DNA of 64,000 nt, taken from NCBI GenBank assembly GCA_050273025.1, contig CP158635.1, forward strand, positions 13,578,001-13,642,000. Direction: 5' to 3'. This document shows positions 1,984-45,100 of the stretch, piece by piece. How positions within the stretch are numbered: the first letter of the stretch is position 1; each line of letters opens with the position of its first letter. The notes beneath the pieces are model-generated. The model made no database searches. It saw only the letters and a program-made list of their open reading frames with translations, and was not told the origin of the DNA. The translations under genes were made by a program, and so were the position numbers. Source of the DNA: Cenococcum geophilum (lineage: Eukaryota).

Positions 1984-2095
1984 CTTACCTTCCTATTTAC
2001 TAGGTTTACTTTTCTTATCCTTAAGTATTTAGTTAATTTTATATAAGCTAGTTATAAAAGTAATAGTATTAGGCTAGACTAAGTTCTAGTATAAT

Positions 2096-5000
2096 AGGAG
2101 AAAACCCCTATATCGAGATAGGAGAAAAAGGTCCCCTAGTCTCTCTAGAAGATTCCTATAGACCTAGGGATAGAAGCTTAAGTATATTAGTAGATAATCT
2201 AGTAATAGATCTTACTAGAGGTATAAAGCTAGCAGTAGAGAAAGCTATCCCTAGATTTAGAACCTGCGAATTCTCTAAACTATAGTGGAATAAAGAGCTT
2301 CTAAAGAAAAGACAAAAAATGGCAAAACTAGGGAGACTTTAAGAAGAATAACCTACTAGAAGTTCTAGACTAGAAGCCTATAAAGAAGCCAAAAATTAAT
2401 ACTTCTACGCAATAAGAGAAGCTAAGACTAGCTGCTAGAATAGCTTCCTAGAAAAAGCACAAGGAAAGGAAGTTTTTACTACCCTAAAATATATAAAGGA
2501 GAGAACATTGCGAATAATCCCTAGTCTATAGTATAGCAGACGGGACTACTAGACTAGTAGAAAGCTTTAAGGACCAGTATAAAACTTTTATAACTACTCT
2601 ATTCCCTAAACCCCCCCCTTCTACTAGCCCTATAGAGTGGAAGGACTATATAATAGACAATAAATAGGAATAGGCAGAACTAGAGAAAATAGAAGTTAAA
2701 TAAGCAATTTTCTTTAGCTCTAATAAAAAGGCTCTAGGACCAGATAGTATATCTTTTATAATTCTATAAAAGGCCTACCCTACTATAGAAGATCTTCTAT
2801 ATAGAATCTATAGGATTTTGTTTATCCTAGGCTATTAGCTAAAGGTCTAGAGAGAAGCTTAAGGAGTTATTCTCCCTAAAGTAAATAAGGAGGACTATTC
2901 CTTACCAAAGTCCTATAGACCTATCTCCTTACTAAACTGCCTAGAAAAGACTTTAAAAAAGATCTTTACTACTAGATTAGAATATCTAGCTAGTACTACT
3001 AGCTTGCTTCAAGATTCTTAACTAGGAGGAAGAAGACAGCGGTCTATAATAGACGCAGTTTTATTACTTCTAAATAATATCCAATCTAAAAATAGTAGGA
3101 AAAAAGCTAGATAAAGGATAGCCACTACGTTATTTCTAAACGTAAGAGGGGCTTTTAACCATGTCTCTAAAAACCAGCTTTTATCTATCTATAAGGAACT
3201 AGGACTACCTATAGCGTTTATACAATAGGTAGCTACTTTCCTTAGCAATAGAAAGCTATAGCTCTCCTTTAATGGGTAAATATAAGAAAAGGTAGAACTA
3301 GAAATAGGGATACCATAGGGATCGCCTATATCTCCTATTTTATTTCTATTATATATACGCAATATCTACAGCATATAGATAGAAGGAGCCTACTCTCTTA
3401 GCTATATGGACGATTTTATAATTACGGTTACCTTAAATTCAGTCAAGTCTAATTGTAAAAAGCTAGAGAGAATAGCGCTAGAGCTAATGTCTAAAGCTAA
3501 GGAAGCTGCTATTAGTTTTAATATTAGTAAAACAGAGCTTATATACTTCTATAGTAAACGCACTACTATAGAAGAAGGGTTAAAGCTAGGAGACGTAGAA
3601 ATATCTCCTAAACCCCTAGTTAGGTGGTTAGGGATATTTTTAAACTCTAAGCTTACTTTTAAATAATATATAAAAATACAAATCTCTAAAGCAAAAACAG
3701 CCTTCTATTTAATTAGAAGACTAGGTAATATATAAAGAGGTCTATCTCTATAAGCCCTACGACAGCTCTATATAGCTTACGTTACCACTATAGCAGACTA
3801 CGGTGTATAATGCTAGTGGAAAAGCAAATTTAGAGACTACCTACTAAATAGGTACCAATCTCTATAAAATAAGGCCCTAAAACTAGTTCTAGGAGCGTTT
3901 AGAGGATCTCCTAGCCAAGCTATAGAGATCGAAGCCTCTATTCCTCCTCCTAGAATTAGATTTAAAAAGCTTTACAATAACTACGCATTAAGAATCCTAA
4001 AATTTAAGGAAAACTACGTAATTAAGAAGGTCTATATAGAAGAGATTAACAAAGATAGGGACGAATTAGCAGCTAATTCTAGCTCTAGTTCTAGCCCTAA
4101 AAACTCTACTATAAAGTACCTCCTATAGCCAAAGACATAGCTACTATCTTTAGCCTCTAGAGTTTAGCAGCTAATTTAAAACTAGAAAATAGAGAGAATC
4201 TCTCTAGAATAGCAAAAACCGTGGTCTCCTCCTATCTCTACATTCTTTTCTATCTTAAGGGGTAGTAAAGAAGAAGCTGTATAAGAACATCTAAAACTAG
4301 TAGAAAATTTATAAGAATCCCTAGAGTGGAATCTAGTAGATATATACTATATAGATGGCTCTAAAGACAATAAATTAAATATAGCTGCTATATGTAAAAT
4401 AGGGGAGAGAAATAGGATTAAATATGCAACGAATTGGAATCTAGGACCCTATATGGAAATTATAAACGTAGAGCTTTATACAGTCTATAGGGCCCTAGAA
4501 CACCTAAAATAATAAAAACTAGAAGAAAAATAAGTCTATATCTTTATAGATAGCTAAGCGGCTATTAAAAGATTATAGCTTGATTCTTTTATAGGGGGGT
4601 AAGAACTAGTCTTTAAAATTACGCAAAGCTATTCCTATTTAGCTAGTAAGGGGATCTCTATTAACTTCTACTGGGTTCCTAGCCATTTAGAAATCTATAG
4701 GAACGAAATAGTAAATAAGCTAGCAAAAAAGGGCCTTTCTAGAAGAAAACTATAATCTTCTTATACCTCCTTAGCCTATATAGGGAGAGCGGCAAGAGGA
4801 GAGATACTAGAATAGTAGAAAAACAACTAGCAGCAGAATAAGAATAAAGGAAAACACTATACTAGGATCTGTAAAGGAAGCCATTCCTTTTCTCTTAAAG
4901 CCCCTAAGGATAAATATCCTAAAAGGCTATAATCGGCTTTCTACTAGCTAAAGCTAGGAAAAGGCTATTTTAAATCCTTTACTAAAGTAATAGGAGAGGA

Positions 5001-6476: not shown

Positions 6477-6703
6477 TATATAATTATAGTATATAGTATA
6501 CTAAACACGTAACTACGCGTTTAGTATACTAACTACTTATTTATAAAGTGCTAACTAATTAGGGGGGAGGCGCGTTAGTATATAGACTATGTAGTCTACC
6601 TTAATAGAATTAACAGTTACTATTATCTAAAAGAGTATACGATACTATATATATTTTATGCCTCTGGATATAACTTACTTATATTATTAAGTTAATATAA
6701 ATA
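6477..6703 (+). repeat. Co1 5' LTR
   Basis: Direct repeat of 12144-12370, differing mainly by transitions. Confidence 0.93.
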
Positions 6704-7079
6704 TTAATTAGTAAGCGCGTATAAATTAGTAATTACTTAATACCTCCCCTAAGCAATATATAATAGTAACTACCCGTTTATATCCTAGTACAACCTATTA
6801 AAAGGTTAGAAGTTAGGGATTACGGACTATTACCAACTCTATATACTTATTTAAGTCTTAGTACGGTTTACTAAAATTTTATAAACGCGAATATAGACCT
6901 TTACGGAACCTTTTACCCTTTTACGAACTATTATAGACCTATTAATTGCCTTTACGGACTATTATAAGACCTCCTCTACCCGCTATATGCTACTACTACC
7001 CATTATAGCTTATATAAATATACTATACTATATAATATAGTATATATAAGTAAGTAAATTAATAAAGGTTAAAAGAAGT

Positions 7080-12143: not shown

Positions 12144-12370
12144 TATATAATTATAGCACGTAGTATACTAAACGCGTAACTACGCGTTTAGTACACTAAC
12201 TACTTATTTATAAAGTACTAACTAATTAGGGGGGAGGCGCGTTAGTATATAGACTACGTAGTCTACCTTTATAGAATTAATAGTTACCACTATCTAAAAG
12301 AGCATATAATACTATACGTATTTCGTGCCCCTAGATATAACTTACTTATATTATTAAGTTAATATAAACA
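12144..12370 (+). repeat. Co1 3' LTR
   Basis: Ends aaaca, followed by TSD ctaat. Confidence 0.93.
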
Positions 12371-13058
12371 CTAATTTTATACTATTCTTCTAAATTAATA
12401 AAACCTTATTTATCTTTACTGCTATTAAGTAGTCCTTTATAGAGTAGTCTTCCTAGCTATATAAAAAGTAAGCTTTTTAATTACTAAGGGCTTATTTATA
12501 GGGGCTGCTATATATAGGCTAAGTATATACTAGACCTGTAGTAGGACTAGCTATATAACTAGTTACGAGATTAACGGTAGGCTATATAGTAGGAGATATA
12601 GGAGTTATAGATTATACTAGGGTACTATAAGCCGTTTTTATAGAGCTTATAGTTTAGTTTAAAGAGCTTCTAGCTTTATACTACTTAGCTTATACCTTAA
12701 TTTAATAAAAGCCTTAGTTAATAGCTAAGTAGTAGTCTATAAGTACCTTTAACGTCTATATAATAGTAAAAACTAGTAGTATAACGCGCTATAGGTCTAA
12801 AGTAAGCTTATTAAAGAGGTCTAGTATTAAGTCTTTATAGGAAATTTAGGCTTAGCTAGCTAGGTCTAAAAAGTAGGTCTAAAAAGCTAAAAAGGTCTCT
12901 ATTGTTTTTATATTTAGACTTTTATAATTAAGGCAGGTATTTTATATCTTAAAGAGGTCCTTATAAATAAAGGTAATTTCTAGTAGTTTCTATTAAGGTT
13001 CTATTCTTATAGTCCTATAAATAGTATTTTAGTCTAATTTTATATTCCTATTCTATTT

Positions 13059-13436
13059 TGTAAGAGGCCAGCCTAACCAGAACGTATAATTATCTAATCG
13101 ACAGTGTCACCAGTAAGTAAAAGGTAAGTCAAAGGTAAATAGAAGGTAAGTTAAAGGTAGAATGAGTTTCACGTATTGAAGAACAAATGCTTCTGACCAC
13201 TTCTATTTAGAGACTAATCGCTGGTTCTTCTCTAGAGGAGAACCAGCTCCCTATATGATCTTTCTAAGACGCCAGCAAAACCCTTTGCCCCTTATCTGTC
13301 TGACCGTGTCTTTTGGGACGTAGATAGAATATAGGTGAGACCTCCTTCTGGAATATAGATGAGACCTCCTTCTAAAACATAGATGAGACCTCCTTCTATC
13401 TCATCTAATATGTACCTTCTAGGGAATTCCGTTATA
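13059..13436 (-). repeat. G2 3' LTR (contains three ~23-bp tandem atagatgagacctccttct units)
   Basis: Direct repeat of 20413-20790; termini tgtaag...gttata. Confidence 0.95.
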
Positions 13437-13973
13437 ATTGCCTCCCCTTTAAGGGTCTTAGTCCTCTAAGACTTTGCCTCTACTAAGCTTTTATAGAGTT
13501 CCGGCTAAAACCACTGGGGAAATTCTTAGTGGAAAGGTACTCTATAATGCGGCTTATAGCTAGTTCTTCACTAGCGTAGAACTTTACTTTGTCCTTAATT
13601 CCTCTACTCTTTTCCCACCATAGTTCCCTTTCTTATTATAAGAGTTTGTTATGAGTTAATCTAGAGGTTGTCCTATACAACGCGTCTACGAGCCACCATC
13701 CCCATTCACCTAAAATGGATTCTAATAATAACGTCTTTATTTTAATTTTCTTCTAGTTTATAAGCTATCGCCTCTTACGCGTCTTTTTATCAACAACACC
13801 ATTTGTCTCATCTTTTAGCAGACTGTTTCCTCTATATCTCTGCTTTCAGCTTCTATGTCTCCAGCTGTTCTTTTACAGCTGCTTTATTCTCTTCTCGTAA
13901 CACGTCTATAAGCAACAGGATCCCTACCTCATCTTCTTGTAACAATGCTAACTTCTCAAAGTATTCTCTTATA

Positions 13974-14836
13974 ATAGCTCGTGGTCTCTAGACCGGCGGC
14001 AGTGTCGTTAATCTCCCGGTAACGCCCCAGACAGCGTCTATTACTCCTACGGCAGTTTCCCTAAAATGCTGTCGTCGCTGCGTTTATACTCTCACGCAGG
14101 ATCCTTCCCACGTCTATAAGATGCCTCGCTCCGGCGAAAACAAATCCAAGTGCTCCTATTGTCGCAGCAGGAGAAAGACCTGCGTTCTGGTATTTCCCAT
14201 TCCGTCCTATTCTAGATTTCGCTAATTGTGCTAGATCCCTGCTATCTATATGTATAAGACTTATAGGCTCTAACGCGCCATCCAAGATTTCCGCCGATAT
14301 CCTAATAGTAATAGGTGGGGATAGAAGGTGTCTTCCCTTACTTGCAAACTCTTCAATTCCATAAGGGTTTCCACCGCTGTAGAGACGCAACGTTCTCAGA
14401 CACACAGTGTCTAGGAGCGTATGTGTGAACAGCTCGTCCTCATTAATGATAATATTTATACTCTTATGCGGGCTACTCTGGCCAGGTGAGTTTCTCTAGT
14501 GACTCGCTTAGGAACTATGCTAACTCCTTTAGCTAATATCTCTTTAATCCCTGCTTAGACGCCGATTTGGAACCTAGGGATACTAAGGATAGTGACGACG
14601 GTTAAGATAAACGTTCTCCTCGCTAGTCTCCCGCCTGTGCTGGTCCTTCTAGTACCCGTTATTCTAAGAAGAATGTTAGTAGAAGTGCTAATGCTTCTGG
14701 GGATGGAGGAGCCGATAATACCGTCGATAATAACGTTGAGATGGAAGAGAAGGCTCCTATTACTGCTGCCGATATTTAAGTTGTTACCTAGCTCTTTCCT
14801 TCTTTTTGTAGAATAGCTTTATATAGTGCCTCTTAG
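13974..14836 (+). pseudogene. Three-exon gene antisense to G2 gag-pol, encoding a Cys-rich (Zn-cluster-like) protein of roughly 240-260 aa
   Basis: Exons 13974-14189, 14235-14485, 14533-~14780/14836. Introns GTATTT..GCTAAT..TAG (45 nt) and GTGAGT..GCTAAC..TAG (47 nt) join the frame. Motif CCRRCVYTLTQDPSHVY(C)KMPRSGENKSKCSYCRSRRKTCV. Start ATA is inferred as a RIPed ATG; true stop uncertain. Confidence 0.75.
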
Positions 14837-15279
14837 GTGCCTTTAGGATGCCCTATTATTGGAAATTGACTTTATACTTTAGGGATGCCTTTATTCTAAG
14901 CTTTAGTAACAATCTATATAAACGCAGTGCACTATTATAATCCCTATATATAATAAACGGGTGGTGTTCCTATAGGTGCCTTATAATTCCTTAAAATTTC
15001 TAATTCTTTATAGGCTGTTCTTTTGCTCCTCTTTGTACTATTGACTTTGCTATATATCTTTGGTGCCAGGCCGAATACTCTCCTTTTATTTCTAGGGGAT
15101 CTTTCTAAATCCCTAAGGCCACTTCTTATAGTGCTACTACTCCTTCTTATACAGCGTCTTCTTTAAACAGTATCCCTGGTAGTTCTCCTGTAGGTCCCTA
15201 TAGGCTTCTTCTTATAAGATTCTAGGATCCCTGTTATAATAGTAAAATGTTTCTGTTCTTAATGCCTATACTTACTTCT

Positions 15280-18200
15280 ATAGTTTTAATTTACGGGGTC
15301 TTCCCTATTGCTTTACCTATAGTATATCCGGAACTATTTCTAAGTCTTTACCTTTAGTTCTCAGGAAGGTTTTAATTGCAGTGTCACATCCCGGCTAAAG
15401 GTACTCCTTAGGTTCCCAACTATTATACGCCTAAAAGTATCCTTCCTAACGAACTAAAAATTCGCGCTTCTTTTGGCGCCATCTTTAGTCTAAAATGTCT
15501 TCTACATTCCATTCCAGTTCCCTATCAATTTCGCTAGGTAGGGGCGGTTCCGCACCATCTCTTCTCCGGTATAGCTCTAGTAAGGAAATATAAAATATAG
15601 GATATATTAGATAAGATTTTGGTAATTCTAATTTATAGGCTTGGTTTCCTTTAATTTTCTTAACTATCTTAAAGGGTCCGAGCTACCGGTAATCCAGCTT
15701 CTTCTTAATGTGTTTTATTTGGATATTTTTTATAGATAGTAAGACTTCGTCTCCTATCTTAAATTCTTTTAGCATATGTTTTTCGTTATAGTACCTTTTT
15801 TATACGGCTTGGGCGTCTAGTAAGTGCTTTTCAAGTTCCTCTCTGCGAATTCTCATTTACTTAATTCTTTCAGACGCCGCCGGTGCCTTTCTTTCGGGAA
15901 TAATGTCCTTAACGTTCCAGGGATCATTTGCTTTTACCCCAAACAATGCTTTATAAGGGGTTATTTTTATGCTGCTGTGGATGCTTATATTATATATATG
16001 CTGCGCTAGAGCCAACCACAATATCCAATTATCCTATTAATAATTAACATAGCAGCGGAGGTAGTATTCCAACAACGCATTTAAACGCTCTATTTGCTTA
16101 TCTATTTATAGGTAAAAGGCAGTGCTTATCCTTTACCGTATTTTTAATAAGAGACAAAATAAAGACTAAAATGCACTATTAAATACGGTGCCTTTGTTAG
16201 ACATAATTCCCCTTAGTATACTAAATAAGAGCCACTATTCTAAAAACAGGTCTGCTAGTTCTACTGCTGTGATCGTTATTATAATAGCAAAGTATCCTAA
16301 AAACTTTATATACCTGTTGACGATTACTAAAATAGCGTTAGTAACCTCTTTAGTTCTTGTCTTAGTAGGGGGTAAGCCTATAATAAAATCCATTATTAAT
16401 TCTAATATAGGTCCCTGCAGAATAGGAAGTACTAATAACTTACCGTATAGGCGATACCTGGATATCTATATCCTTTGGCACGTATCACACCTTAATATAT
16501 AGTCCTTAACCTCTTTAGACATTCCGTCTTAAAAGTATTTCCTTTAAACAGCCTTAAGGGTCCTATTGGCACCGTAGTAACCCCTAAGAGGGTTGTTATA
16601 AAAGACCTTTAGAATTTTGTCTTAAATTGCTTAGTCCTTTAGGATATATACAGTACCCTTAAAGCGTAACAGACCCTTTTAGTCTTGCTACTATAGCTTC
16701 TTAGTAACTCCGGCCAAGTTAGTCTTTACTATATCTTTCTACCTCTTTCTAGAGGCAAAGGCGTCCTTTTATTAAGCTTAAAGGAGAAGATCTGGAAAGG
16801 TTTTGTATAGATCGCTTGCTTCCATTTTGCCTACTACTATTACGGACTTAAGGCATAGCACGAGACGTTTTAAACTATTAGTGCCAGCAGATTCTTCTGC
16901 CGTTGTGCAGTATGCTATACTGCGAATAGGTATCTCGCCTATCCCCCTTAGATCCGAGAACTCGTAGCTGATGCGCCGTTAAGTTGAAGGTGCCGCGATA
17001 CCTTTAGCACATCCCGCAGAATTCTCGCTAATTCTAGGGTACGCCAACTTTATAATATCTGCTTGGTCTATAACCTAGTCTATAACTATATTCTACGGCT
17101 CTATAATTGTGTTGCTTCGTAGCTGCATTGCCAGGACCTCTACCCTGTTGTAAAATTCTATAGTTCTAGGGAAAGAGTCTTCTTTCTTCCTGAGTAAATT
17201 TTGCAATGTGGGGATTATTTCCCCTATACTGTCCTAGATTCTCCCTATCTCGTAATCCGGACGTTTTAATAACCTATTAATAAGATTTATCTTTTTTAGG
17301 CGGTATGTAATCTTAAAATCATACTATAATAGTGCCTCTGCCTACCTGGCTTGTTAACCGCTTAATACCTTTATAGTTATAAAGTATTCTAGGTTGTTGT
17401 GGTCTGTAAGGACTTTAATAGGATAATTGCTTCCCATATAATAATGTCGCTAGTGCTTTATTGCTGCGATTATCGCGAGTAGCTCCTAGTTATACGTTAT
17501 ATAACGCTGCTCTATAGGGGTTATTTTCCTTAACTAAAACGCCACAGGATGCCATTTTCCGTCTTTTAATTGAGATATAATTGCCCCTAGGGCAAAGCCG
17601 GATGTATCCGTTTTAAGGTATATATATAGCTCCTAGCAGAAGTATATTAGAATAGGCGCCGACGTAAACAAATCCTTTAACTAGTCTATAGCCTGCTTAG
17701 CAGCTTCCCTAAATATAAAGGGTCCTAACTTCCTGCCATTCTTAGATCCTTTTAGTAGATTAGTAATTAGGAGTATTACTTATAAGTAGTAAACAATGAA
17801 CGTTTGGTAGAAGTTCGCTGTGCCTAAGAAAACCTGTACTTCTCTAAATGTCATAGGGTAGGGCTATTCCCTAATAGCGTCCACCCAACTTTTCTCTATT
17901 GATACTCCGTTGACGCTGATAATAAAGCCTAAAAAATCAATACTAGTAGTATGGAATGTGCACTTTTTTAGGTTTATATAGAGCTTATATTCCCGCAGTC
18001 TTTCTAGTACTATTTATATGTGGTGCGTATGTGCTTTATAGTTATTAGAGTAGACTATAATGTTATTAAGGTAGACTATATATATCGTGTCTAATAGGCC
18101 TGATAATGCCTTATTGATATAGGCCTAAAATGTCGCTGGTGCGTTGGTGAGCCTAAATGGCATCACTAGGTACTTAAAGTGGCCGTACCGTATTCAGAAC

Positions 18201-19170
18201 GCCGTTTTCTACTTATCGCCGGCTTTAATCCGGATTCAATAGTATGCATCTTTTAGATCCAATTTTATAAATATCTTCGCGCCTAATAGCCTGTTGATAA
18301 GCTCCCCTATTAAGAGTAATAGGTAGCAATTCTTTATAGTAATCTTGTTTAGCGCCTAATAGTCGACACAGAGGCGAAGGGTCCCGTCCTTTTTGGGTAT
18401 AAATATAATCGGCGCCCTTGCCGGGCTTATAGAGGGCCAAATCTATTCTCTCTAAAGATTATCTACTATATATTGACGCAGTACCGCTAGCTTATTTTCT
18501 GATAGGTTATACAGCGGTCTAAAAGGAGGTTATTTGTCCCCTGTGTCTATCTTATACTCAACTAATATAAGGTCGGGTAAGGTTTGTGTAGCCTCTTTAC
18601 TAGAAATATCCTTTAAGTCCGCATATTCTTATAGAATCTTTAGTTCCTTAACTATGTATAGCCGGACATCCGAAAATGAATATCCTATGTCCCTGTTCTT
18701 GGTGTTAAGAGTGGTATACATAGCATATACCCACCCTTCTTCTTATATATAGTTTAAGAAAGTCTCTTAATCTTTAACTATAATGTACGGTTAAGACTTC
18801 CGATGTTAATATAAGGCTGAAGGCCAATTAATGTCCGGATTGACTTGGCGAAGCTATGGGTATCCCAAAATAAGGTCGTACCCCTTGATTTCTGCGGCAT
18901 AGAAGCGTATCTCCTGCGTGTTCTATAGACCATCGCGGTCCTAGCTGGCTACGGAAAAAGCTTGTTCCCTGTAGTATGGAATCTAGTAGCCTCCGATGCT
19001 TTAAATAGTGCGCACCTATGAGCCGCTAAGGTCCAAATCTAATTCTTTCACCAGTAATTGAGAAATAAACCCTATACTCGCGCCGCTGTCTATAAGGTAG
19101 TCTCGTGTTACCTATTTGTTATTAACTTAAATAGAGACAGGAATAACTATATAGTAGTTTACTCCCTCCT
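15280..19170 (-). pseudogene. pol: G2 pol (PR-RT-RH-IN-chromodomain, terminal GRPRK AT-hook-like motif)
   Basis: MPFRLTNAPATF, VYLNN (RIP of YLDD, ~18065), WHPVAF, EWNVEDILD..FLVR.EGY..SWEP, GRPRK at ~15290-15305. Confidence 0.9.
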
Positions 19171-19199
19171 TCTTTTACTAGCCTAGTGTAAGGGAGTAA

Positions 19200-20367
19200 A
19201 GATCTACTAGGCTGTCTCTTTTTCTAATTAGGCCGACTTTTACTTCTTCTACTAGCAGAAGCGGCTTATATAGCCCTTCTTGCTATAGTTATAATAGGTA
19301 TATGTCTTCCGGTTCCCCTCCTACAAATTAGGTCTCTGCCTATTATTATTTTAGGGTTAACCAGCGTTACTCTAGGGCTGTGAGGCCTACTCGCGTTATC
19401 CTTCCGTAAAGCGGTTAGGTTAAAATCTGCCCCTGTTGTTAAAGCTAAGTCTAGTCCTACGCTCTTCATCATTGGCGTCTTGTTCCTTTCGCTTACCTAG
19501 ATGGTCTCTTTTAGCACTCTTAATTTGAGTAGCTTTAGAGATAAGCTTTTCTTAAAAGGTAGGAATTTCGCCCTTCTCTTATATGGCCTATTAAATCTTA
19601 GGTTATAACTTAGCGAGTAGCTAGTGAAGTTGTATAGCGTTATCCTATAAATCCGAGTAGGGTATATTGTCTTCTAGTTCTTCCAAGTAGTTTATAAACT
19701 AGACCACAGTCTAACCATCTTGCTGTTTAGCGTTGTGGTATCGCTGGTTATAGTCCATCCCTTAATTAGTAGGGTCTTAGACCTAATCAACCAACTAGGT
19801 CCTAAGTTCGCTAAATTTAAGGGGTATAGTAAGTTTTTTCTTATAACGTGTCTATAAACTCTTAATGGTGCTACGTAGGAAGGTAAAAGCAATTAGTGTC
19901 TAATTATACTTATTAGAGTAACGTTTTGGATCCAGCCGAAACTTAGTTTTGCATTATCGGATAAAATAATTACAGTTCTAAAGACTATTACTATAATACT
20001 TATCAGGTTCCTTTATACGGAATTTAGGTTTTTCTGACGTTATAGCATAGTATAGCGTTACCCCTTTAAGTCCACTTCGTGTCTGGGGTATTTATACTTC
20101 CCCTAATTATCCTTACAATTGTTCTTAGTAGTCTTAATATACTTATCTCAATTATATCTTTAACTCCTTTATTTTTTATAAGGTCTTATATAGCGACCGC
20201 TCTAATAACTCCCTAGCGGTAATCGTTCCTAAAGGTCTTGCAAGGTTAGACGGACCAGCTGTGGCTTCTTCGTAGAAAGAGGGAATGTGCTCCTCTGGGG
20301 AGACTCTTTAAGCCTCTTGCGGTAAGGGCGTTGCTTTATAGGGTACAGGAGTATAGTTTATTATCAT
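19200..20367 (-). pseudogene. gag: G2 gag
   Basis: Position between the 5' LTR and protease; RIP-interrupted frame with a degraded knuckle near 19300-19345; limits approximate. Confidence 0.7.
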
Positions 20368-20412
20368 CGATTAATAGCCGTACGTTCCTAACGGATTATA
20401 AGCGATTAGAAT

Positions 20413-20790
20413 TGTAAGAGGCCAGCCTAACTAGAACGTATAATTATCTAATCGATAGTATCACTAGTAAGTAGAAGGTAAGTCAAAGGTAAATAAAAGG
20501 TAAGTTAAAGGTAGAATAAGTTTTACGTATTAAAGAACAAATGCTTCTAACCACTTCTATTTAGAGACTAATCGCTAGTTCTTCTCTAAAGGAGAACCAG
20601 CTCCCTATATAATCTTTTTAAGACGCTAGTAAAACCCTTTGCCCCTTATCTGTCTAACCGTGTCTTCTAGGACGTAGATAGAACATAGGTGAGACCTCCT
20701 TCTAGAATATAGATGAGACCTCCTTCTGGAACATAGATAAGACCTCCTTTTATCTTATCTGATATATACCTTCTAGGGAATTCCGTTATA
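20413..20790 (-). repeat. G2 5' LTR
   Basis: Direct repeat of 13059-13436, followed by TSD tattt. Confidence 0.95.
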
Positions 20791-23578: not shown

Positions 23579-26299
23579 TTATATTGCGCCTTTTTTACTA
23601 CTAATACCTAGCCTATAACCAATTCTACGTCTCTATAATACTATAGGCGCTGCTAGAAGCAGCGTATCTATAAGCAACCTTTACACTATAATAGTAAGAC
23701 GAGATTCTTTACTAGCCACTATATTAAGCCTAAAGAGCAACCTAATACCCTAATCTAACCTACGACGCAAATTAACCCTAGGAGAATTTAATTTATTAAC
23801 CCTAGCCTTAACCCCTAAGGGTAAGCCTAGCGGCTTAAAAGAGTTATAACTATAAGTACCCCTAAGCACCTAGCACTACCTTAAAGACAATAAGAGTTAA
23901 CTAGCCTAGCAGGATAGGCATACCCCTATTGGTATAGGTGGCTATAGTAATAACCTTAACGAGATAGACACCAGCGATATCTTATCCTTTATTAATTATA
24001 TAGCTACGGAAAAGTAACTAGAAGGGTAGCTACCTATTAAGATTAAAATATAAGACGCTAAGATGTTTATATAAATGGTAGCAAGAGAACCTAATAAATA
24101 CTACTACCTTTTATAGAACTGCTACTTAAAGCTTACACGAGCTGAACTGCGTGCTGCCTAAGACTATAATATTACTTAAGACTTATAAGCTAGCGAGGCA
24201 CTTACTAATAATATACGCTAAAAGACTAAGATAACCTCCGTATATCTAAGCGCGACGTTTAATAATTAAAGAAAGCTAAGATTATACTTATTGCCTAGGT
24301 TACTAAAAAGGAGGGCATAATTAAATACCTATAGTCTTAGCTTAACAAGCACATCCGTAATAATGCTAAGCACTTTCTTACTACGCACTATACTACCTAA
24401 GTCTTTACGCCTCCGGCAACCTTACCCACCCAATACTTAGCTAAAAGTTAGCGTTAAGCAGCTTTACCTAATAGGGATAACCCCTATAATAGCAACCGAA
24501 CTTAAGCTATAATTATAGGGTCTAATATATAATACCTTAATCCCTTAGTCTTTTAGGGAGACCGTAAGGAATACAGCTACTGGAAGATGTAAATCTGTAA
24601 GAAACTAACCTAGAGCGCTTACCTTTTTCCTAGGGAGGATACTAAGATTGGTTACATTATTAGGCGTATAAAGGGTACCCTATTTAACAGACTTTTCGCC
24701 TAATAGGAGACCAATAGCCCCTAGAAGTGGTAGTCCTACTATAAGGTCCTTAATAATCTTAACCTAATATATCGCGACTACGACCTAGTGGCTACCAGTC
24801 GAGCTAAACTATGCGCCCTAAAGATAAGTCCTACTAAGTTATTTGACGAGTTCTATGTTAAGTTCTAGGAATATACTAGAGTCCTCTTTTAAGACGACGC
24901 TAAAGACCAGGAAGACCTCCTTAAAAAGGTCACCTATTATCTTAGTTACGCTACCGCTAGTTATAATTATAATAACGTTTATAATATAGTGGCAGCCCTA
25001 TAGAAGATTAAACGACGGCTAAATTAGATCTCTACTACTAACCCTTGCCTAAAGGCTCCTATATAAAAGCCCTCTGGGCCAACTACACCTATATATACTA
25101 GGTTACTAACGCCTACTACTAATAATATTACCGGAGCCAATATTAACCTCTCTATACTAACCTTTTTATATAAACTCTTAAACGGAGAGCGTAAGCTACT
25201 TTAGAAGCTAGGGCGCTGCTATAGATACCGTTAAGAAGGCTGTTATTGCGAAAACCCGAACTACCTAATGGTTAGGTTTAGTAATCGCCGCCTAACACCT
25301 AACTTTATACCTTAAACACTAAATACCTCGCTATATACCGTTACCGTATAAGATAAAGAAGCAGCAGCAGCGGAAGTAGTGGGAAATACTTAGTCCTAGC
25401 CCTAAGTTGCGAGCTGGGACACCTTAATAATAGAGGGATCTATATATCGGCCTGCTTAATAGATAACTTAGTAAGAATAGACGGACGGAAATAGATAGTT
25501 TTACTTATAATAGGAACAACTGCTAAAAAAATAATATAAAGACCGTTTTATAATTAACTGCGAAGCTATTAATAAATTTATAGATACCTAATTTATGCGT
25601 AAACATAACCTATTAACCTTACCCCTTACTAAAGCCCGCGCCCTATAACTCGCTAACGGTAGTTATACTATATAAAAGATTACTTATATGGTATAACTTT
25701 ACCTAGATATAAACGGACACTAAGAAGAGCTTTGGGCCTATATTATACCACTTACTAATTACCCTATTATCTTTAGAATAAACTAGCTTAAGTAGTATAA
25801 CCCCATTATTGACTAGAAGAAAAGAAAAGTGACCTTTAACTCTAACTACTATAGAGAGACCTGCTTAGGGCATAGCCTAGCCGCCTCTACCTACTCCCTA
25901 AGATATTAACCTAAAAAACCTCTAATTACACCACCCACGACTAACTATTACCACGTTAGTGCTATAGCCTTTTATCGCATAGCACGAAGGAAAAGCTAGG
26001 TTATTATAGCGGCCTCCTGCTTATAGCTATAGAAACTTAATAAAGAATAGGATTACGTCCTCTATAGTAATAGAATAGATCTAGTAGACCTCTTAAAGGA
26101 CGATACGCCTATAAAACTTAATAAACTCTTAACCTTGGACTTTAAGAAGTTTATAAAGCTTAAAAAGGGACTTACTACATCAGCAAAATGTTTGTGCCTC
26201 CTGACAGTACTGACAGCTCCTGACAGCTCCTATCAGGGCTGTCAGGAGCTCCAGAAGACACTCACACTCGGCATCCTGTCAGGAACCTATCAGGAGGTC

Positions 26300-26388
26300 A
26301 CCCGGACCACCAGGACCACCAGGACCTCCAGGACCTCCAGGACCTCCAGGACCATTAGGACCATTAGGACCATCAGGACCATCAGGAC
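26300..26388. repeat. 9-bp tandem repeat (approx. ccaggacca/ccaggacct), ~9 copies
   Basis: Directly visible. Confidence 0.9.
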
Positions 26389-27280
26389 AACAATAAAAAT
26401 TCTAGATTTAAAAATAAGGTATATTAAAACTCCAGTATTTTCAGCTAGTCAAAAAATACAAAATTAATTTAATTATATATAATCTAAATAATCCAAATTA
26501 ATATCTCCTGTCTACCGCCTGTGTCTGTTATGGAGCTCTACGATCGCTCGGGCGTCGGGCGATCGACTGAGGAGCCTCTCGCGGAGGCTCCAAATCGTCG
26601 ATCGGCGGTGTTCCCGATGATCCGCCGGCCGTGTACTGATTTCCTAACTAGGCCTAGTGCCTGCCTGCCTGCCTGCCTGTCTGTCCTACCTGTCTGTGCC
26701 TGCCTGTGCCTGTCGTGCCTACCTGTCTATGCCTACCTGTCTGTATCTGTAATTTGGGGGAGAGGTCGGCCCGATTGAAGGCTCTACTTGATTCGAATCG
26801 TTCTCCATAGGCGTTCGTTGGCTATACGTTTAAACGGTGGTCGTCTGGGGTGCCTCCCTAGGAGGCCTTGATTCGATTTAATTCGGTAATAGGCTGATAT
26901 CAAGGCTCTGGTTCGATTCGATCGATCAATCGAATCGATCGTGGTGTTCGCTGGCTGGTCGTTCAAACGATTATCGTCTGGTTCTGACGACGGTCCTCTC
27001 CTACTTGCCTGCCTACCTACCTACTTACCTACCTACCTACCTGCCTGCCTGTGTTAGTATCTGATTAATTTAGGGGAGAGGTCGGCCCGATTAAAGGCTC
27101 TAATTGTTCTCTATGGCCGTTCGCTAGCTGTACATTCGAACGGTAGTCGTCTAGGGTGCCTCCCTAGGAGGCCTTGATACGATTCGGTAATGGGCCAATA
27201 TCAAATTTAATTAATCGATCAATTGAATCGTTCGTAGTCTTCGCTAGCTGGTTGTTTGAAAGGTTGTCGTCTAGTTCTTG

Positions 27281-27430
27281 TAACGGTCGTCTGGTTCTGG
27301 CGACGGTCGTCTAGTTCTGGCGACGGTCGTCTGGTTCTGGCGACGGTCGTCTGGTTCTGGCGACGATCGTCTGGTTCTGGCGACGGTCGTCTAGTTCTAG
27401 CGACGGTTGTCTAGTTTTGGCGACGGTCCT
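27281..27430. repeat. 20-bp tandem repeat cgacggtcgtctggttctgg, ~7.5 copies
   Basis: Directly visible. Confidence 0.95.
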
Positions 27431-29406
27431 CTGCTAGCTGCCGTTCTAGTGCCTTCTAAGGGAGGATATAAGGAAGGGTAAAGAATGGGGTGACTACAAA
27501 GGGGGTAACTTGGCAGAGGCACGTGTAGGCTATTAGGAATATAGCGGGGACCTGATAGCACTGTGTGTCGCGCGCACGCGTACATAGGGTCGTGTCGCAT
27601 TAGGGGGAAGGTATCCCATTAGGGGAGGTATCACAGTGGGGAGGGTGTCGCATTGGGGGGGGTGTCTTGAGGGGTGTGTATAGGAGGTGTCGCTTTAGGG
27701 GGGGGGGGGGGGGTTAGGAGGGATATCGCTTAGGGGTATCCTGTCAGGAACCTGACAGGACGATCAGGAAAATTAAGATCCTGCCAGGAGCCTATCAGGA
27801 ACGATCAGGAAATACTAGTTTCCTATTAAGACCCTAACAGGACCGTAAGAGGACGATCAGGAAATCAAAGATCCTGCCAGGAGCCTGTTAGGACGACCAG
27901 GACGATCAGGAAAATCAAAATCCTGCCAGGAGCCTGCCAGGAGCCTACCAGGACGATCAGGACCTCCAGGAAAGTCAAAATCCTGTCAGGAGGCCTCCAG
28001 GATCTTGGCACCCCAACAAAATGCTGATGTAACAAGGAACTCCGCAAGCTCCTCCCTAAGAGGTACTATAACTTTATTAATATGTGCTTATAAAAGGGCG
28101 TAGATATACTCCCCCTATATTAACCTAACGACTATACTATTAATATTAAATAAGGAAAAATGCTACCTTATAGGAGACCCTACCTAATATTAAAAGACGA
28201 ACTTTTAGTTATAAAAAAGTATATTGACGAGCACCTTAATAAAGGGTTTATTCGTCCTAGTATATTACTAGCAGCCGCCCCTATCCTTCTTGCTAAGAAG
28301 CTAGGAAAAGGTATTTAATTCTACGTTAACTATAGAGGACTTAACGCTATTATAATTAAGAACTAATACCTAGTACCGCTTATATGTAAGACCCTTAAAC
28401 GGCTTAGTTAAGCCAAAATCTATACTAAGCTTAATATTATCGCCGCCTTTAATTATTTTTAAATATAGGAAGGTAATAAATGGAAAACCGCATTTATATC
28501 GCGCTTCGGCCAATTTAAATATACTATTATGCCCTTTAGTATATGTAACGGCCCAGGCACCTTCTAAAGCTATATTAATAACGCCTTATAGGACTACCTT
28601 AACGACTTCTACTCGGCGTACCTAGACGATATACTTATTTATAGCAATAACCCTTCTGAGTATACTAAGCACGTTTAAAAGGTCCTATAGCGCCTTAGGG
28701 AAGCAGGACTCTATATTAATTTAAAGAAGTGTGAATTCTTAGTTATAGAAGTAAAATACCTTAAACTAATTGTTACTACTAAGGGTGTCCGTATAGACCC
28801 TAAGAAGGTATATATAATTACCGAATAGCAAGCCCCTAACTGCATTAAGGACGTATAAGCCTTCCTTAGTTTTGCTAACTTCTATTAGAAATTTATATAC
28901 AACTTTTTAGGCGTAGTAGTACTACTTATAGTAATAATATAAACGAAGGGCCTTTTTATAAAAGGAAGAAAAACGTACCTACGCTTTATTTAGACGCCTA
29001 ACTATAAGAAGGCGTTCTAAGACCTTAAAAATGCCTTTACTAAAGCACTTATCCTAGCTCACTTTATACTAGGATAATAACTCTATCTTAAAACCGACTC
29101 CTTAGACCACGTTAACGTAGGCGTTCTTTCTTAGATAGGTAATAACGGTTTCCTCTATCTAGTTGTATTCTACTTATCTAAGCTTATACTATAAGAGTGT
29201 AACTATAAAATCTATAATAAAGAACTCCTTACAATTATATAGAGTACCTCCCTACTCCGTGCACGTTCCCACTCAATGCACGGCATTTTCCATACAAAAT
29301 CCCTAACTTTACACCCTTATAATATAACCACTATTAAAGCTATTATTATAAATTTTTATAATTAGAATATTTATAACTATATAAATATATTTTTAGCTTT
29401 ATATTA

Positions 29407-38910: not shown

Positions 38911-41581
38911 ATTAAATATTATATATTTAAAGTTTTATTATTATAGCTTTAATATTAAATTTATTATAAACTATTTAGTAAATATTTTTAATATTTTTTA
39001 AATATCTTAAATTTAAAGCTATATAATTAGCTAAAAATAATTAATTTATATAATGTAAACCTAAAAATATATTTATATAGTTATAAATATTCTAATTATA
39101 AAAATTTATAATAATAGCTTTAATAGTGGTTATATTATAAGGGTGTAAAGTTAGGGATTTTGTATGGAAAATGCCGTGCATTAAGTAGGAACGTGCACGG
39201 AGTGGGGAGGTACCCTAAGCGTTTAAAGAATTCTAACCAGAACTCTTCTTAGTAGAACCTAACTAGCTAACTAAAGTCCTTACGGATTATCGCAACCTTA
39301 AGTACTTTATAACTATAAAGTAGCTAAATTAACGCTAAGTATATTGGAATAATAGTTTTAACTTTAAAATTATATATAGGCTAGAAGTATAAGGTATAAA
39401 ACCTAATAGCCTAACACGCTATTTGCAAGATCTTCCTTAGTTAAAGAACGACCCTCGTAATTAGTTCTAATAGTAGATAATCCTAAAAGTAAGGAACCTG
39501 GCCCCTGATATACTACCTATAACAAAACTATTCGCACCCTAGCTTTACGCTATAGACTTAGAGCCGCCCCCCGAAATTAATAAGCTTATTGCTGCTGTAT
39601 ATAATATCTCTATTAACCTATTATTACACTAACTTATTGCCGCGAAAACTGCTAGCGTCTGTAAGCTACCTATTAGCCTCCGAAACTTAGGCCAAATTAA
39701 TATAATAGCCTTAAAAGTAAAGGAGAATAAACTCTATTATAGAGGCCGTCTATTCGTCCCTAATTTAGAAGACCTATAACAGTAACTAATTTAAATGGCC
39801 TATAACCTCTAGTTAAGCAGTTACCTAGGCAAAGGAGAAACGTACGAACTCCTTAGCCGATATTACTTCTGGCCTAAGATAATAGACTTAGTTAAACGCT
39901 TTATAAGCGCCTGTTACGGCTATAAGCGCGCTAAGGCCTTTCGCACTAAGTACTAAGGACTACTACACCCGCTACTAATTCCTATATAGCGGTGGGCAGA
40001 TATAGCTATAGACTTCGTTACTAACCTACTACCCTATAAACGGCACGGTTGTACCTATAAGAACATCTTAATAATAATATGCCGACTTATTAAGGAACGT
40101 CACTACGTCCTAACTAAAGGCATAGCCGTAAACGACGTCGTAGACGCTTTTCTTTACGAAGTTTACTAACTATATGGGATACCTAACTCCATTACATCCG
40201 ACTAGGGCACGTAATTTGACTTTGACCTATGGAGACGGATCTATTAACGTCTTAGTATCTCTATTAAGATGTCTATATCCTTTTACTATAAGACTACGGG
40301 ATAGTTAGAAAATGCTAACGCCAGTATAAAGGCGTACTTACAATAGGTCGTTGCCTATGGCCAAGACAACTAGGTAGATTACCTCCTACTAGGCGAGTTT
40401 ACAGCTAATAACTACGTCTTAGCCACTATAGGACTTACTCCGTTCTTTATAAATAAGGGTTATTACCCCTAATCTGGCATAGAGCTACCAGAACCTATTA
40501 ATAAGAAACTACTATATAGAAAACGCCTTAAGATGCTACTTGCTAACTAGTATATAGACTATATAAAAAATCTACTTAACTACTATAGGGGAGAAATGGC
40601 CTGGGCTTAAGTAAAGTAGGCCTACTTTGCCGACTGTTATAAAACGCCACTACCAGAGATGCGTGTTGGCGACTAGATATAGCTAGATATACGTAATATC
40701 TCTATATAGAGGCCTATAAAGTCACTTAATTATAAGAATCTCGGCCCCTATTAAATTAAATAAGTTATTAATAAGGGAGCCGTATATAAGCTAAAGCTCC
40801 TACCTACCCTAGCTACCTACGGGATATAGCCTATATTTTACCTATAGCTACTATACCTTTACTAGCCTAACCCCTTATTGGGATAGATATAGCCTAAACC
40901 CCTACTAATACTAATCCGAGACAAGAATAAGGACGAGAACTATAAGGAGTGGACTGTTAAACAAATTATTAACTCTAAATACTTTAGTAAAGGTAGAGGA
41001 CGGCGGCTCTACTACAGAGCTATCTATATAGGATTTGATATAGATTAGCCAGAATGGCAGCTATAGAAAAACTTTAAAAATGCAAAGGACCTAATTAGCG
41101 ACTTTTACTACGCGAACCTATAGAAACTAGGCTTAAGCAAAGATTTCATGCATAATCCTCTATAGGAGCCCTTATAGAGTTTAACCGTTATACACTGCCA
41201 CGTAAGGGCAAATTGCCGTTAGATTGCCGTAGATTGCTATTATATAACCGAAAAATTGTTAAGATGGTTAGGAACTTTAACCGCCAATTAAAGTTATCTA
41301 ATTAGTTAAATTCTTAGGCGCTAAGCCTTATTATATAATATTGCTGCGGACTGTAAAGATGTTAGTTTAGCTTACCGCCTTCCACTAAGCTAATAGCGAT
41401 TTTCTATCCCGGGGATAGAAAATCCTAATTAGTCTATTTAACGATTAGAGCTAGCAGAACTCCACACTACTAACCCCTTTAGCGTTATTTATTTTCCTTC
41501 TCTATACCTTAAGCGTTCCTTTTATATATATATAGTAACTATAGCGTCGCCAGAGCTCCGCCTCTATAAGAGGGGGGGTAG

Positions 41582-41786
41582 TGTTACGGAACGCCGCTGT
41601 AGGAGCCTTTATAGGAGACTCCCTAGCGGAATCCCGTGCCCTCGCGTACGCTTCGCGTATAGCTTACATCAGCTACGCGTAGTATATCACCTTCCTACGC
41701 CCTTAATTCTTATAATCGATCGCGTAACGTCTTATAGACTCCTAGAATACATACGTTCAGTAGCCACTATTCCACGCCCTATAATA
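41582..41786 (+). repeat. C 3' LTR
   Basis: Direct repeat of 23374-23578, followed by atccc. Confidence 0.95.
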
Positions 41787-41993
41787 ATCCCCCTGCCTAA
41801 AATAAATATTTAAATAACTAGTATAGGCGGTGTACCGCTGTCCTAATTATATAAAAGGATAACTAGTATAAGTAACTAATCGCTTCCGTTAAGCCCTACC
41901 TACTAACCCTAATTATTATCTAATTTCGGTTTAGTATCTAGTAAGTACTACTTATAAGGACGAAGCTATAATTAACACGCTATAAGAACTCCG

Positions 41994-42181
41994 TGTTATA
42001 GTACGTGCTAACTATTAAGGTACGATATACGAGGTAACTGTATATAATTAACAAACGATATTATATAAGGATCTATGTATAGAGGTAAGGCGGTATATAT
42101 GCGTGTCGCTCAGAGGTTAGGTCTATACTCGTGTTACAGTAACGCCAAGTTATAATAATGTGTTAGGTTAGTGCCGTAATA
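41994..42181. mobile_element. Solo LTR (188 bp)
   Basis: Termini tgttatagtac...gtgccgtaata (RIPed TGTTACGGCAC/GTGCCGTAACA); flanks ctccg and ctcta. Confidence 0.75.
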
Positions 42182-42186
42182 CTCTA

Positions 42187-45100
42187 TATTACGGAGTAAG
42201 TATAAGCGGCGATAATATATAGCAAGGTAGATATTATTAAGCTATATATATAAACTGTATAAGAAGTTAAGACGTTATATAAGGAAAGAAGGTAGGAAAA
42301 TAGGAAGAAAGGGTATATATTATAGACTTAGTTGCTTAGTTAATACGTACACGGAGCAGAATAGGATTTAGATAGTAGTCCTGGCAGAACTTAGTAGGAT
42401 TTAGTAAAACTTAGTAGAATTTAATAGAATATGGCAGGATGCGGCAGATTGCTAATAGATTGCTATATATTGCGGCAAATTGCGGTTTTATAGTTAGTCT
42501 TTAGTTACTAAGTTAGTGGAAATAGGTAGATATATGCAAGGTGTTACGGGGGTGTCCTATAATAGTACCCCCCCTTTAAACTCAAGCTTCTATAAGATAG
42601 GGCTATAGTAGTTCTAAGTAAAGTTTATAAAAGTCTTTTACGGCTTATATAAGTCCTATAGAGTTAACGGGTTCCTATAAGGGCTTAGTATAGCCTCTTT
42701 ACTTTATAAGATATATATATTGGCGTTTCCGTTTATTATACTTAATATTATTAATTCTTTTAATAAAGTACTTATCTTTACCATCCACCTTAACTAGTGG
42801 GGGAGGGTCCTATATTTATCTAGACAGGGCGTTTAATATAGGGGTAGTAGGGTGGAGGACTAACGTATAGAATATGGGGTAAATTTTAACCGTATTAGGG
42901 AGCTTTAGTTAGTAGGCATAAGGAAAGATAACCTTTTTAACCTTATAAAGGCCAGCGTTCTTCTAATTAAGTTTCTTAGTAGGTTATTTTATATTTAGAT
43001 TTCTTATATTTAGCTAAACGAAATCACTAATTTAGTAAGCCAGTACTGGGGTTTATTTCTTATTCGCTGCGGCTTTATAAATAGATTAAGCCTATATTAT
43101 CTTATTAGTAAAGAACTATTATAGTTCCTCTATCTTCTTTATAAATTTATTTACTTCTATAACTTATAAGGCGTAATAAGCGGGGTAAGAAATATTACTA
43201 AAGGGTTTAAACCCCATTTATAGGTACTAGCCGTAATTAGCTAGAAATAGAGAGACTTTTATAGTTTCTAAGATAGAATTATTTATAGTAAACTTAGTAA
43301 ATATAAGCTAGTTAATCTAGTTATTTTATAAATATAACATATATATCTAAATATACTGTTCTATTATAGCATTTACGCGTTTTATTTAACTATCCGTTTC
43401 TAGGTAATATGTAATAAACAGTAGTGCTTTAATATAGAGTTAAGTAGTAAGTTTTTTCTAGAATACTAAGATAAACTAGCTGCCTTTATTAGAGATTATT
43501 GTTTTAGGGAGTCTATAAAGTTTCTATATATAATCTAAGAATAGTTAGGCAACGGTAGGCGTTAATATATTAGGGCAGGCAATTAAGTATCTTATCTTAA
43601 ATAGTTAGTCTATAACTACTATAATATTTATATAGCCTTTACTCTTAGGGAGGTTAATAATAAAGTTAATTAAGATATTCTTCTATCTTTAGTCTAGAAT
43701 AGGCAGCGGCTTTAAAAGGCCATTATATGTCTTATATAAGGCTTTAGCTTACTAGTAGGTATAGTAGCTAGAGATATACCTTCGTATAATATTATATATA
43801 TTTAGCTAATAATACTCCTATTAGAGTAGTTTTAGGGTCTTTCCTTAGCCTAGGTGGCTGGTAACAGGTAAATTATATACATGTTTAAGGAGCTTAAGCT
43901 TAAGCTTATTATAATTAGGGATAACTAGACGGTTTTAGTAATATAAACGGTTTCTATAGGCTTTATATTTACTTAAAGAAATCTTTTTAGAGCGTCTAAT
44001 GCTATCTTATATTAGCTTAAGCGTCTCTTAAATAAACTCGTTATTCGGGTATTTATTAACTATAATTTAATTAATTAATTAATTAGTTATTTTAAGGACG
44101 TGTACTATAAGATCTTTAGTAGGAGGGTTAAACAGTTTAGGGTAAAGTAGGGTCTAATTTTAGTAAGAGTGCGCTTTTTTTTAGGGCTGGCGCGTCTTAC
44201 AAGTATTAGGTTAGGGTATTAGGCTTCTAACCTTAGACGCCTAGGTAGTATATAATTAAAAATTAGAAGTGTAATAAATATTCTAACTAGTAAGCCTAAT
44301 AATAACTTAATTGTTTTATAGTTGTAAAGTATTATAGGTTCTTATAGTCGCTAAGGACCTTAATTAAAAATCTAGCGCCTTTTAGTTTAGGTCGCCATTG
44401 CTTAAAGCATCTAATAATAGCTAATAATTCTTTATTATAGATCTTATAATTATATTTAGTAGGGCTTAGTTACTTTAAGAAGTATACTATAAAGTATAAT
44501 ACTCCTTTTTTATTATATTAAGACAGAATGCCTCTAGTAATATAATTAGATAAGTTGGCTTTTATAACACTTATTTATTTTAGGTTAAAGTATTAGAGTA
44601 TAGGTATAGTAGTAAATATAACCTTTAGATAAGCAAAGGCCTTCTTATATTCTTTATTAAAGATAAAAGCTTTATTCTTTTAGGTTAGAGTAATAAGGAG
44701 TAAAACTAGGGCGAAGAAGTTATTAATAAACTATTAGTAGAAATTAGCAAATCCTATAAAGGCTTTTATATCCTTAACGTTCTTAAGTTCCTGCTAATTT
44801 ATAATTACTTTGACTTTCTTTAGGTCTATTTATATACTATTTATAAAAATAAAAAGTTTAAGGTATAGGACTTCCGTTTTATAGAATTTATATTTATTTA
44901 TATTTAATTATAGACTAGCTCTATATAGGGCTTATAAAATAAGATTAACGTATTTCTAATATTTGGTTAAGTTATTACTATATATTAAAATGTCATTAAT
45001 ATAAGTAGTATAGAAGATGTTTAGGTAGGGATATAGGGTATTATTTATATAATATTAGAACGAGCTCGGAGTATTTATAAGGCTAAATAGTATTACTAAG

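Follow-up and report, generated by a model that had tools for sequence, protein, structure and literature searches.

Evidence for a spliced antisense gene behind pol in a RIP-degraded Gypsy chromovirus of Cenococcum geophilum

A stretch of 64,000 nucleotides from Cenococcum geophilum (GenBank assembly GCA_050273025.1, contig CP158635.1, positions 13,578,001 to 13,642,000 of the forward strand; here called the window, with coordinates counted from its first letter) contains a Ty3/Gypsy retrotransposon, named G2, that has been degraded by repeat-induced point mutation (RIP). The long spacer between its pol gene and its 3' long terminal repeat (LTR) very likely holds a real protein-coding gene that is spliced, antisense to gag-pol, and maintained by the element. 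An initial annotation, made from the sequence of the window alone, had proposed an element-encoded gene of this kind. The G2 case unites splice junctions in RNA, 81 aligned copies, codon selection resembling that on pol, and a reason for the persistence of the introns. The gene is antisense to gag-pol, between the pol stop (near 15279) and the 3' LTR (from 13436), and has the following parts, with the evidence for each in brackets:

13451..13973, plus strand: presumed promoter and 5' untranslated region (UTR) (upstream of the start codon; non-coding by its indels)
13974..14189, plus strand: exon 1 coding sequence, with a Pro/Ala-rich N terminus and the seven-cysteine motif (sequence, codon tallies of 81 copies)
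14067..14183, plus strand: cysteine motif CC-x2-C-x11-C-x11-C-x2-C-x6-C (codon tallies, 81 copies)
14190..14234, plus strand: intron 1, 45 nt, GT..AG, branch site CTAAT at 14222-14226 (sequence, RNA-library contigs, copies)
14235..14485, plus strand: exon 2 coding sequence, very basic, predicted to form two long helices (consensus; AlphaFold2)
14486..14532, plus strand: intron 2, 47 nt, GT..AG, branch site GCTAAC at 14519-14524 (sequence, RNA-library contigs, copies)
14533..14779, plus strand: exon 3 coding sequence, acidic serine-rich tail (consensus, codon tallies)
14780..15300, plus strand: probable 3' UTR of the antisense transcript (RNA-library contigs of related copies over 14709-15300)

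In the window copy, the three exons join into one frame of 714 nt, as had been read from the intron phases, and this frame contains 7 internal stops (4 TAG and 3 TAA). At each of the seven positions, other copies read CAG, CAA, CGG, TGG or similar codons; the stops are therefore RIP-type changes, in agreement with the initial annotation. In the window the first codon reads ATA, whereas 51 of the 81 copies have ATG there, and the terminal TAA at 14777-14779 is shared by 71 of them. Exon 1 ends in ...KTCVL, with a CTG codon directly before the GT, which corrects an earlier reading of ...KTCV. Both introns lie at the coordinates proposed for them and are short fungal spliceosomal introns, with GT..AG borders, a CTAAC-type branch site, removal in RNA and, in intron 2, a length change that is not a multiple of three.

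Splicing was examined in four of 24 public runs, which were compared with positions 13058-15700 at 80% likeness. Run X13 is a metatranscriptome and X14 (organism A) is only guessed to be RNA, while X5 (DNA) and X21 (raw RNA reads) both come from organism B. In X13 and X14, one contig each skipped intron 1 exactly (joint 14188>14234, skip of 45 nt, with GT..AG borders once the cut is shifted by 1; contig depth 8, shorter side 61 nt). Intron 2 was likewise skipped exactly in one contig from each of the two runs (joint 14483>14531, skip of 47 nt, with GT..AG borders once the cut is shifted by 2; contig depth 4.8, shorter side 62 nt). One spliced contig of 182 nt matches the window at positions 14068-14188, and these 121 nt contain no mismatch. 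Because copies of the element differ by 10-30% through RIP, a contig with no differences must have had as template either the window copy itself or its twin, which is thus still transcribed and spliced. Neither joint was present among the 5553 contigs compared from the DNA run X5. In X13 and X14, depth was zero over the end of pol (15372-15700) and the gene region was covered up to about 15300; this argues against carry-over of DNA, although a hole in contig coverage proves nothing by itself. Reads of X21 touched only the LTR of G2 and not the antisense gene. As a separate observation, organism B contains the G2 family in extremely high abundance: the X5 contigs on 13058-15700 reach summed depths in the thousands, and they vary mostly by C>T, seen at 123 places, and by G>A, seen at 121.

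Other copies of the gene were collected by scanning metagenome contigs with an exon-1 alignment, which gave 123 relatives; 80 loci were retained from these. Together with the window they form an alignment of 81 rows over positions 13700-14900. Since the loci were picked by similarity to exon 1, copies without the gene could not be found by this route. The spacer could be aligned in all 80 loci, and most loci are colinear with G2 all the way from LTR to pol. The gene sits at the same place in every copy examined; whether homologs always lie between pol and the 3' LTR was a question raised by the initial annotation. Overall the copies differ by 10-30%, and by transversions alone the window is no more than 0.33% distant from any of its 10 nearest copies; nearly all divergence between copies is therefore RIP. 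The rows fall into two subfamilies, g2 (29 rows, including the window) and g3 (41 rows), and the analyses by group exclude 11 outliers. The splice sites are largely kept, with GT in 76/81 and AG in 64/81 copies for intron 1, and 72/81 for both sites of intron 2; the exceptions are mostly G>A changes, that is, RIP variants. Intron 1 is present in all 81 DNA copies, and no intron-less DNA copy was seen. A second copy of G2 was not found within the window, either by self-BLAST or by tblastn with the three exons, which matched G2 alone. Four loci showed irregularities of their own. At about 5700-5811 of L027, exon 3 passes into unrelated GC-rich sequence after the residues equivalent to ...SKKN, where an insertion or rearrangement is likely, and in L060, L068 and L071 the end of pol lies 1.3-3.8 kb away from its usual place, as if the 3' part of the spacer had received insertions.

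The coding status of the frame was assessed on de-RIPed consensus sequences, in which C was written wherever C and T co-occur and G wherever G and A co-occur. In the g3 consensus (41 copies) the spliced plus frame runs from an ATG through 240 codons to a stop without any internal stop, and an in-frame stop lies 5 codons upstream of the ATG. The open spliced frame sought by this route was thus recovered. De-RIPing strips stops from any frame, so the comparison between frames serves as the control: the longest open run was 244 codons in the spliced plus frame, at most 160 in the other five spliced frames, and at most 148 in unspliced frames. A pol segment treated in the same way still keeps 5 stops in 678 codons. 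Between the g2 and g3 consensus sequences, the only indels in exons are of 3 and 6 nt, both in exon 3, whereas intron 2 differs by a 1-nt indel (47 nt in the window, 46 nt in g3). The 5' flank at 13451-13973 shows four 1-nt indels, which marks this region as non-coding.

Substitutions between the two consensus sequences were distributed 28/19/68 over codon positions 1/2/3, with a ratio of nonsynonymous to synonymous differences (pN/pS) of 0.23. For four shifted frames (two plus, two minus), pN/pS was about 1.15-1.75. The minus frame that shares its wobble positions with the gene gave 0.36, with 4 stop-bearing codon pairs. For the pol segment, the same method and subfamilies yielded a pN/pS of 0.19 and a distribution of 34/28/95. 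By pN/pS the antisense gene is thus conserved about like pol, with absolute rates about twice those of pol. An uneven supply of RIP sites does not explain the excess at third positions: neutral RIP polymorphism within groups was spread 220/120/183 over the codon positions, compared with 27/18/69 between groups (chi-square p = 2.5e-6), and the GC content of third positions is not higher. Judged by the substitution pattern, the spliced frame was under purifying selection about as strong as that on pol while the subfamilies diverged. The conservation at the codon level that the initial annotation had made a test of its proposal is accordingly found, along with that of the splice sites and cysteines among the 81 copies, and the gene is present in every copy examined.

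Several points weigh against a maintained protein-coding gene. None of the 81 copies is intact, and full-length copies carry 4-14 stops, so that the protein is a reconstruction. The removal of stops by de-RIPing is inherent to all frames, and the comparison between frames is the only control for it. When transversions are taken by themselves (12/7/15), their bias over codon positions is not significant (p = 0.24). Exon divergence (0.155-0.169) is not below that of introns and flanks (0.13-0.19), and the signal of selection therefore resides only in the spread of changes over codon positions. The pN/pS of 0.23 is a Nei-Gojobori (NG86) value, which is biased low when transitions dominate and is safe only relative to pol and the shifted frames. 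The contigs of X13 and X14 are near-identical and possibly represent one data set. As to the transcript of its own that had been postulated for the gene, spliced contigs were obtained at both junctions, but the contigs reveal neither strand nor transcript ends, and the strand follows from GT..AG only. An intron-less DNA copy in the genome of organism A is conceivable, the DNA control having come from organism B only. Finally, on the side of function, the protein has no Pfam family, no relative in the Protein Data Bank (PDB), no match in the ESM Atlas, and a poor AlphaFold model.

Among the alternatives, one is that a single element captured a fragment of a host gene by transduction and carries it as a useless passenger. 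An intron-bearing antisense gene is what a captured host gene is expected to look like, and an ancient capture may have occurred. As an account of the present gene, capture of a useless passenger nevertheless seems very unlikely: the gene occupies the same place in 80 loci and the window, across both subfamilies, purifying selection acted on it during the divergence of the element lineages, and no host paralogue was recovered among 1.84 billion representative proteins or by profile search.

Another alternative takes the antisense transcript as a spliced non-coding RNA that might, for instance, pair with the genomic RNA and serve RNA silencing or limit copy number, the frame being incidental. 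Passages of PMC7264820 discuss regulatory antisense transcription for plant elements. In addition, every sampled copy has at least 4 stops, and yet the window copy is transcribed and spliced; with stops in every copy despite splicing, the RNA is now non-coding in effect. For the present genome this state of affairs is accepted here: all sampled copies have been killed by RIP, and the product that remains is a spliced non-coding RNA. As an explanation of how the frame arose and was kept, a non-coding RNA is most unlikely, since it would not lead one to expect a consensus open over 240 codons, exon indels of 3 and 6 nt, or an excess of third-position changes with a pN/pS that lies near the value for pol.

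It is hardly credible that the minus strand is the one that truly codes, with the 144-codon frame at 14061-14495 as a third sense open reading frame (ORF). This frame is the longest stop-free stretch in the window copy of G2, and its shared wobble positions and pN/pS of 0.36 could be cited for it. Against this, the joints in RNA have GT..AG on the plus strand, the frame holds stop-containing codon pairs and a pN/pS above that of the plus frame, and its open run in the consensus is 148-178 codons compared with 244 for the spliced plus frame. Long open frames opposite a real gene are a common by-product, and the frame at 14061-14495, opposite exons 1 and 2, is judged to be one of the plus-strand gene. 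The 7 stops of the window frame and the lack of a database match might speak for a non-coding spacer with a pattern arisen by chance. This has next to no probability, given that RNA-library contigs skip the two predicted introns exactly and given the comparative evidence from 80 copies. The preferred reading thus remains a spliced antisense gene kept by the element.

The element itself is a RIP-degraded Ty3/Gypsy chromovirus on the minus strand, as given by its LTR pair, domain order, chromodomain and polypurine tract. Its own features are:

13058..13436, minus strand: 3' LTR of G2, 379 bp (self-BLAST pair with 20412-20790)
13441..13450, minus strand: polypurine tract AAAGGGGAGG adjoining the 3' LTR (read straight from the sequence)
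15279..20410, minus strand: gag-pol of G2, a single RIP-degraded frame (Pfam on the read-through translation; de-RIPed consensus of the pol tail)
20412..20790, minus strand: 5' LTR of G2 (self-BLAST)

The LTRs form one pair of 379-bp direct repeats with 92.6% identity to each other. The gag-pol frame starts at 20410 and its stop lies near 15279 in the de-RIPed consensus. Pfam models identified, within this one minus-strand frame, an aspartic protease, reverse transcriptase (RVT_1, E = 5e-30), ribonuclease H (RNase H; RT_RNaseH, 7e-25), integrase (Integrase_H2C2, 2e-11), SH3_Tf2-1 (1e-13) and a chromodomain (Chromo, 2e-7). Two RNase H models match the read-through translation, and the integrase match is to the zinc-binding domain. 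The chromodomain is located at about 15365-15511, with its end near 15365. The spacer between pol and the 3' LTR measures about 1.8-1.9 kb and is unexplained by gag-pol; the initial annotation had put the distance from chromodomain to polypurine tract at about 1.85 kb, which agrees. The whole window is AT-rich and RIP-like. Along G2 the TpA/ApT ratio is high, at 1.16-2.13, and the divergence between copies consists nearly entirely of C>T and G>A changes, as in RIP-mutated repeats.

Outside G2, the window contains four or more additional pol remnants of Gypsy type that belong to other families (453-1067, 28157-29314, 40065-45576, 48852-51545 and 55330-59968). They share 28-39% identity with G2 pol and occur on both strands, and some are seemingly nested or convergent. 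No relevant Pfam match was obtained in 12 read-through frames from the spacers behind three of the other Gypsy elements. Beside the first Gypsy remnant, at about 2000-5000 on the plus strand, a stretch resembling reverse transcriptase and RNase H appears, by eye from its translation, similar to a long interspersed nuclear element (LINE). An island at 26000-28200 has a GC content of 0.47-0.52 in a window of 25-40% GC and contains simple repeats (TRT/SRT-type runs); no clear ORF of at least 90 amino acids with a recognizable product was found in it. Just outside G2, a 233-bp repeat pair (12144-12376 and 6477-6709, 90.6% identity) may be an LTR or a fragment of another element.

The consensus protein of the antisense gene has 240 residues and changes sharply in charge along its length, with an isoelectric point of 9.9 for exon 1, which contains 7 Cys, 12.0 for exon 2 and 4.4 for exon 3. 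The window copy retains six of the seven cysteines, and the fourth is Tyr at 14115. The initial annotation had taken this residue for a mutated Cys, and the copies bear this out: the fourth Cys is intact in 6/81 copies, from both subfamilies, which shows that the ancestral motif had seven. At the seven columns of the motif, Cys was counted in 58, 46, 54, 6, 49, 14 and 23 of the 81 copies, respectively. Apart from one Phe (first column) and one His (second column), these columns hold only Cys and Tyr, the latter being the RIP product of TGY>TAY. Judged from its composition, the seven-cysteine part probably binds zinc.

A resemblance to fungal Zn2Cys6 clusters had also been suggested. Like Gal4-type proteins (PF00172), the G2 protein has six or more cysteines followed by a basic helical segment, and its second triad, C-x2-C-R-x-R-[RK]-x-x-C, looks similar to the first Zn2Cys6 triad. 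The Zn2Cys6 signature is C-x2-C-x6-C-x5-12-C-x2-C-x6-8-C. In contrast, the spacing found here is C-x2-C-x11-C-x11-C-x2-C-x6-C with an extra leading Cys, so that x11 takes the place of x6 in the first triad, and the two halves come in a different order. No match to the hidden Markov model (HMM) of PF00172 was detected with 7 natural exon-1 translations (one searched at E up to 10 and six at E up to 1), and DUF3716 (PF12511), a family of cysteine-cluster proteins with similar Cys spacing, gave no HMM match in the natural translations scanned; the Pfam scans were performed on RIP-damaged natural sequences, which lowered their sensitivity. A sequence search of the PDB at E up to 10 returned no Gal4-type chain and two chance matches with E about 1. 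Membership of the protein in the Zn2Cys6 family is thus not supported.

Searches for other relatives were similarly negative. HMMER against the 1.84 billion representative proteins gave 3 matches, all of them short ORF fragments of other RIPed copies, and a word-indexed search with exon 1 gave a single match, P0001, which is one of these fragments. A profile built from 22 read-through translations found no relative among 1889 candidates. No consistent Pfam family emerged over 5 + 16 translations. DUF7637 matched exon 2 of the window (E = 0.042), but a further 8 translations of exon 2 gave no such match, and it was therefore treated as chance. In the ESM Atlas the top score was 0.76, for an unnamed cluster and below the level of a lead. 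AlphaFold2 was applied to the natural read-through of locus L029 (exon 1, intron 1 and exon 2; 22-row alignment) and gave a mean predicted local distance difference test score (pLDDT) of 47. Exon 2 was modeled as two long helices (pLDDT 55-72), and exon 1 remained unmodeled (pLDDT below 40). A heptad scan revealed no convincing leucine zipper in the exon-2 helix.

Taken together, the spacer between pol and the 3' LTR is most likely an antisense transcription unit for a 240-residue accessory protein of G2. A separate plus-strand transcript would start from a promoter of its own, in 13451-13973 or in the 3' LTR, and be spliced into mRNA. In the genomic RNA the introns are antisense, hence unseen by the spliceosome, and are copied faithfully at each retrotransposition; they survive retrotransposition for this reason. 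Antisense-intron retrotransposition reporters rest on the same logic. Because selection kept the frame, the product should have been useful to the element. From its composition, with a probably zinc-binding seven-cysteine part, a very basic helical part and an acidic tail, the protein may be nuclear and bind nucleic acid. It could act in trans on expression of the element or on silencing by the host, by analogy with plant antisense proteins and HBZ, for which such action is proposed or known. That it is a nucleic-acid-binding regulator is put forward only tentatively, with the odds somewhat against it.

Antisense extra genes of LTR retrotransposons are known but poorly understood, and the closest precedent for the G2 gene is brtn of Boty, which reportedly goes back to a 2011 paper by Zhao et al. 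in Virology (417:248). Both belong to a fungal, chromodomain-bearing Gypsy element and constitute an extra gene that is antisense to the others and placed between pol and the 3' LTR; both are carried by a family rather than a single copy and were missed by standard genome annotation. The likeness is one of position and strand. The exhaustive HMMER, word-indexed and profile searches returned no annotated protein, although BRTN is in NCBI. In passages of PMC8365987, PMC7264820, PMC4227169 and PMC5987419, Boty-like elements of Botrytis and Sclerotinia are described as carrying brtn antisense between pol and the 3' LTR. In full-text literature searches on fungal antisense ORFs in retrotransposons, brtn was the only fungal case described.

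In plants, Ty3/Gypsy elements contain antisense ORFs (aORFs) of the type aORF-3R, exemplified by gene 23 of maize Grande, rice RIRE2, and Silene Retand with TRP28, as stated in parts of PMC7264820 and PMC11963269. According to the same parts, they share with the G2 gene its position and orientation, their presence in most family copies, and a conservation like that of other element proteins, and their products are nuclear or predicted to bind DNA, with a regulatory role that has been proposed and is unproven. They differ in occurring in non-chromovirus lineages and in encoding other protein families (TRP28 and others). The G2 gene for its part has a fungal host, is much shorter, has two confirmed spliceosomal introns, and is inactivated by RIP in all copies.

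The best-understood model is HBZ of HTLV-1, an antisense, spliced, nuclear bZIP protein that is transcribed from the 3' LTR. Like the G2 gene, it is transcribed antisense at the 3' end of its retroelement, is spliced, and encodes a small basic protein of nuclear type. The two proteins have no sequence or domain relation. HBZ is also mentioned in PMC11963269.

The kind of gene found in G2 is therefore already known from brtn and the plant aORFs, and the present case is unusually well supported rather than new in principle. It identifies such antisense genes as functional parts of elements and not debris, and in RIP-mutated genomes they escape gene finders and ORF tracks altogether. It is possible, if rather doubtful, that the G2 gene belongs to a widespread unrecognized class of cysteine-cluster, zinc-binding and DNA-binding regulators located antisense behind pol in fungal LTR retrotransposons. 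If this were true, divergence and RIP damage would hide the links among such genes and with brtn from ordinary searches, and each fungal element family would bring its own transcription or anti-silencing factor, a counterpart of HBZ.

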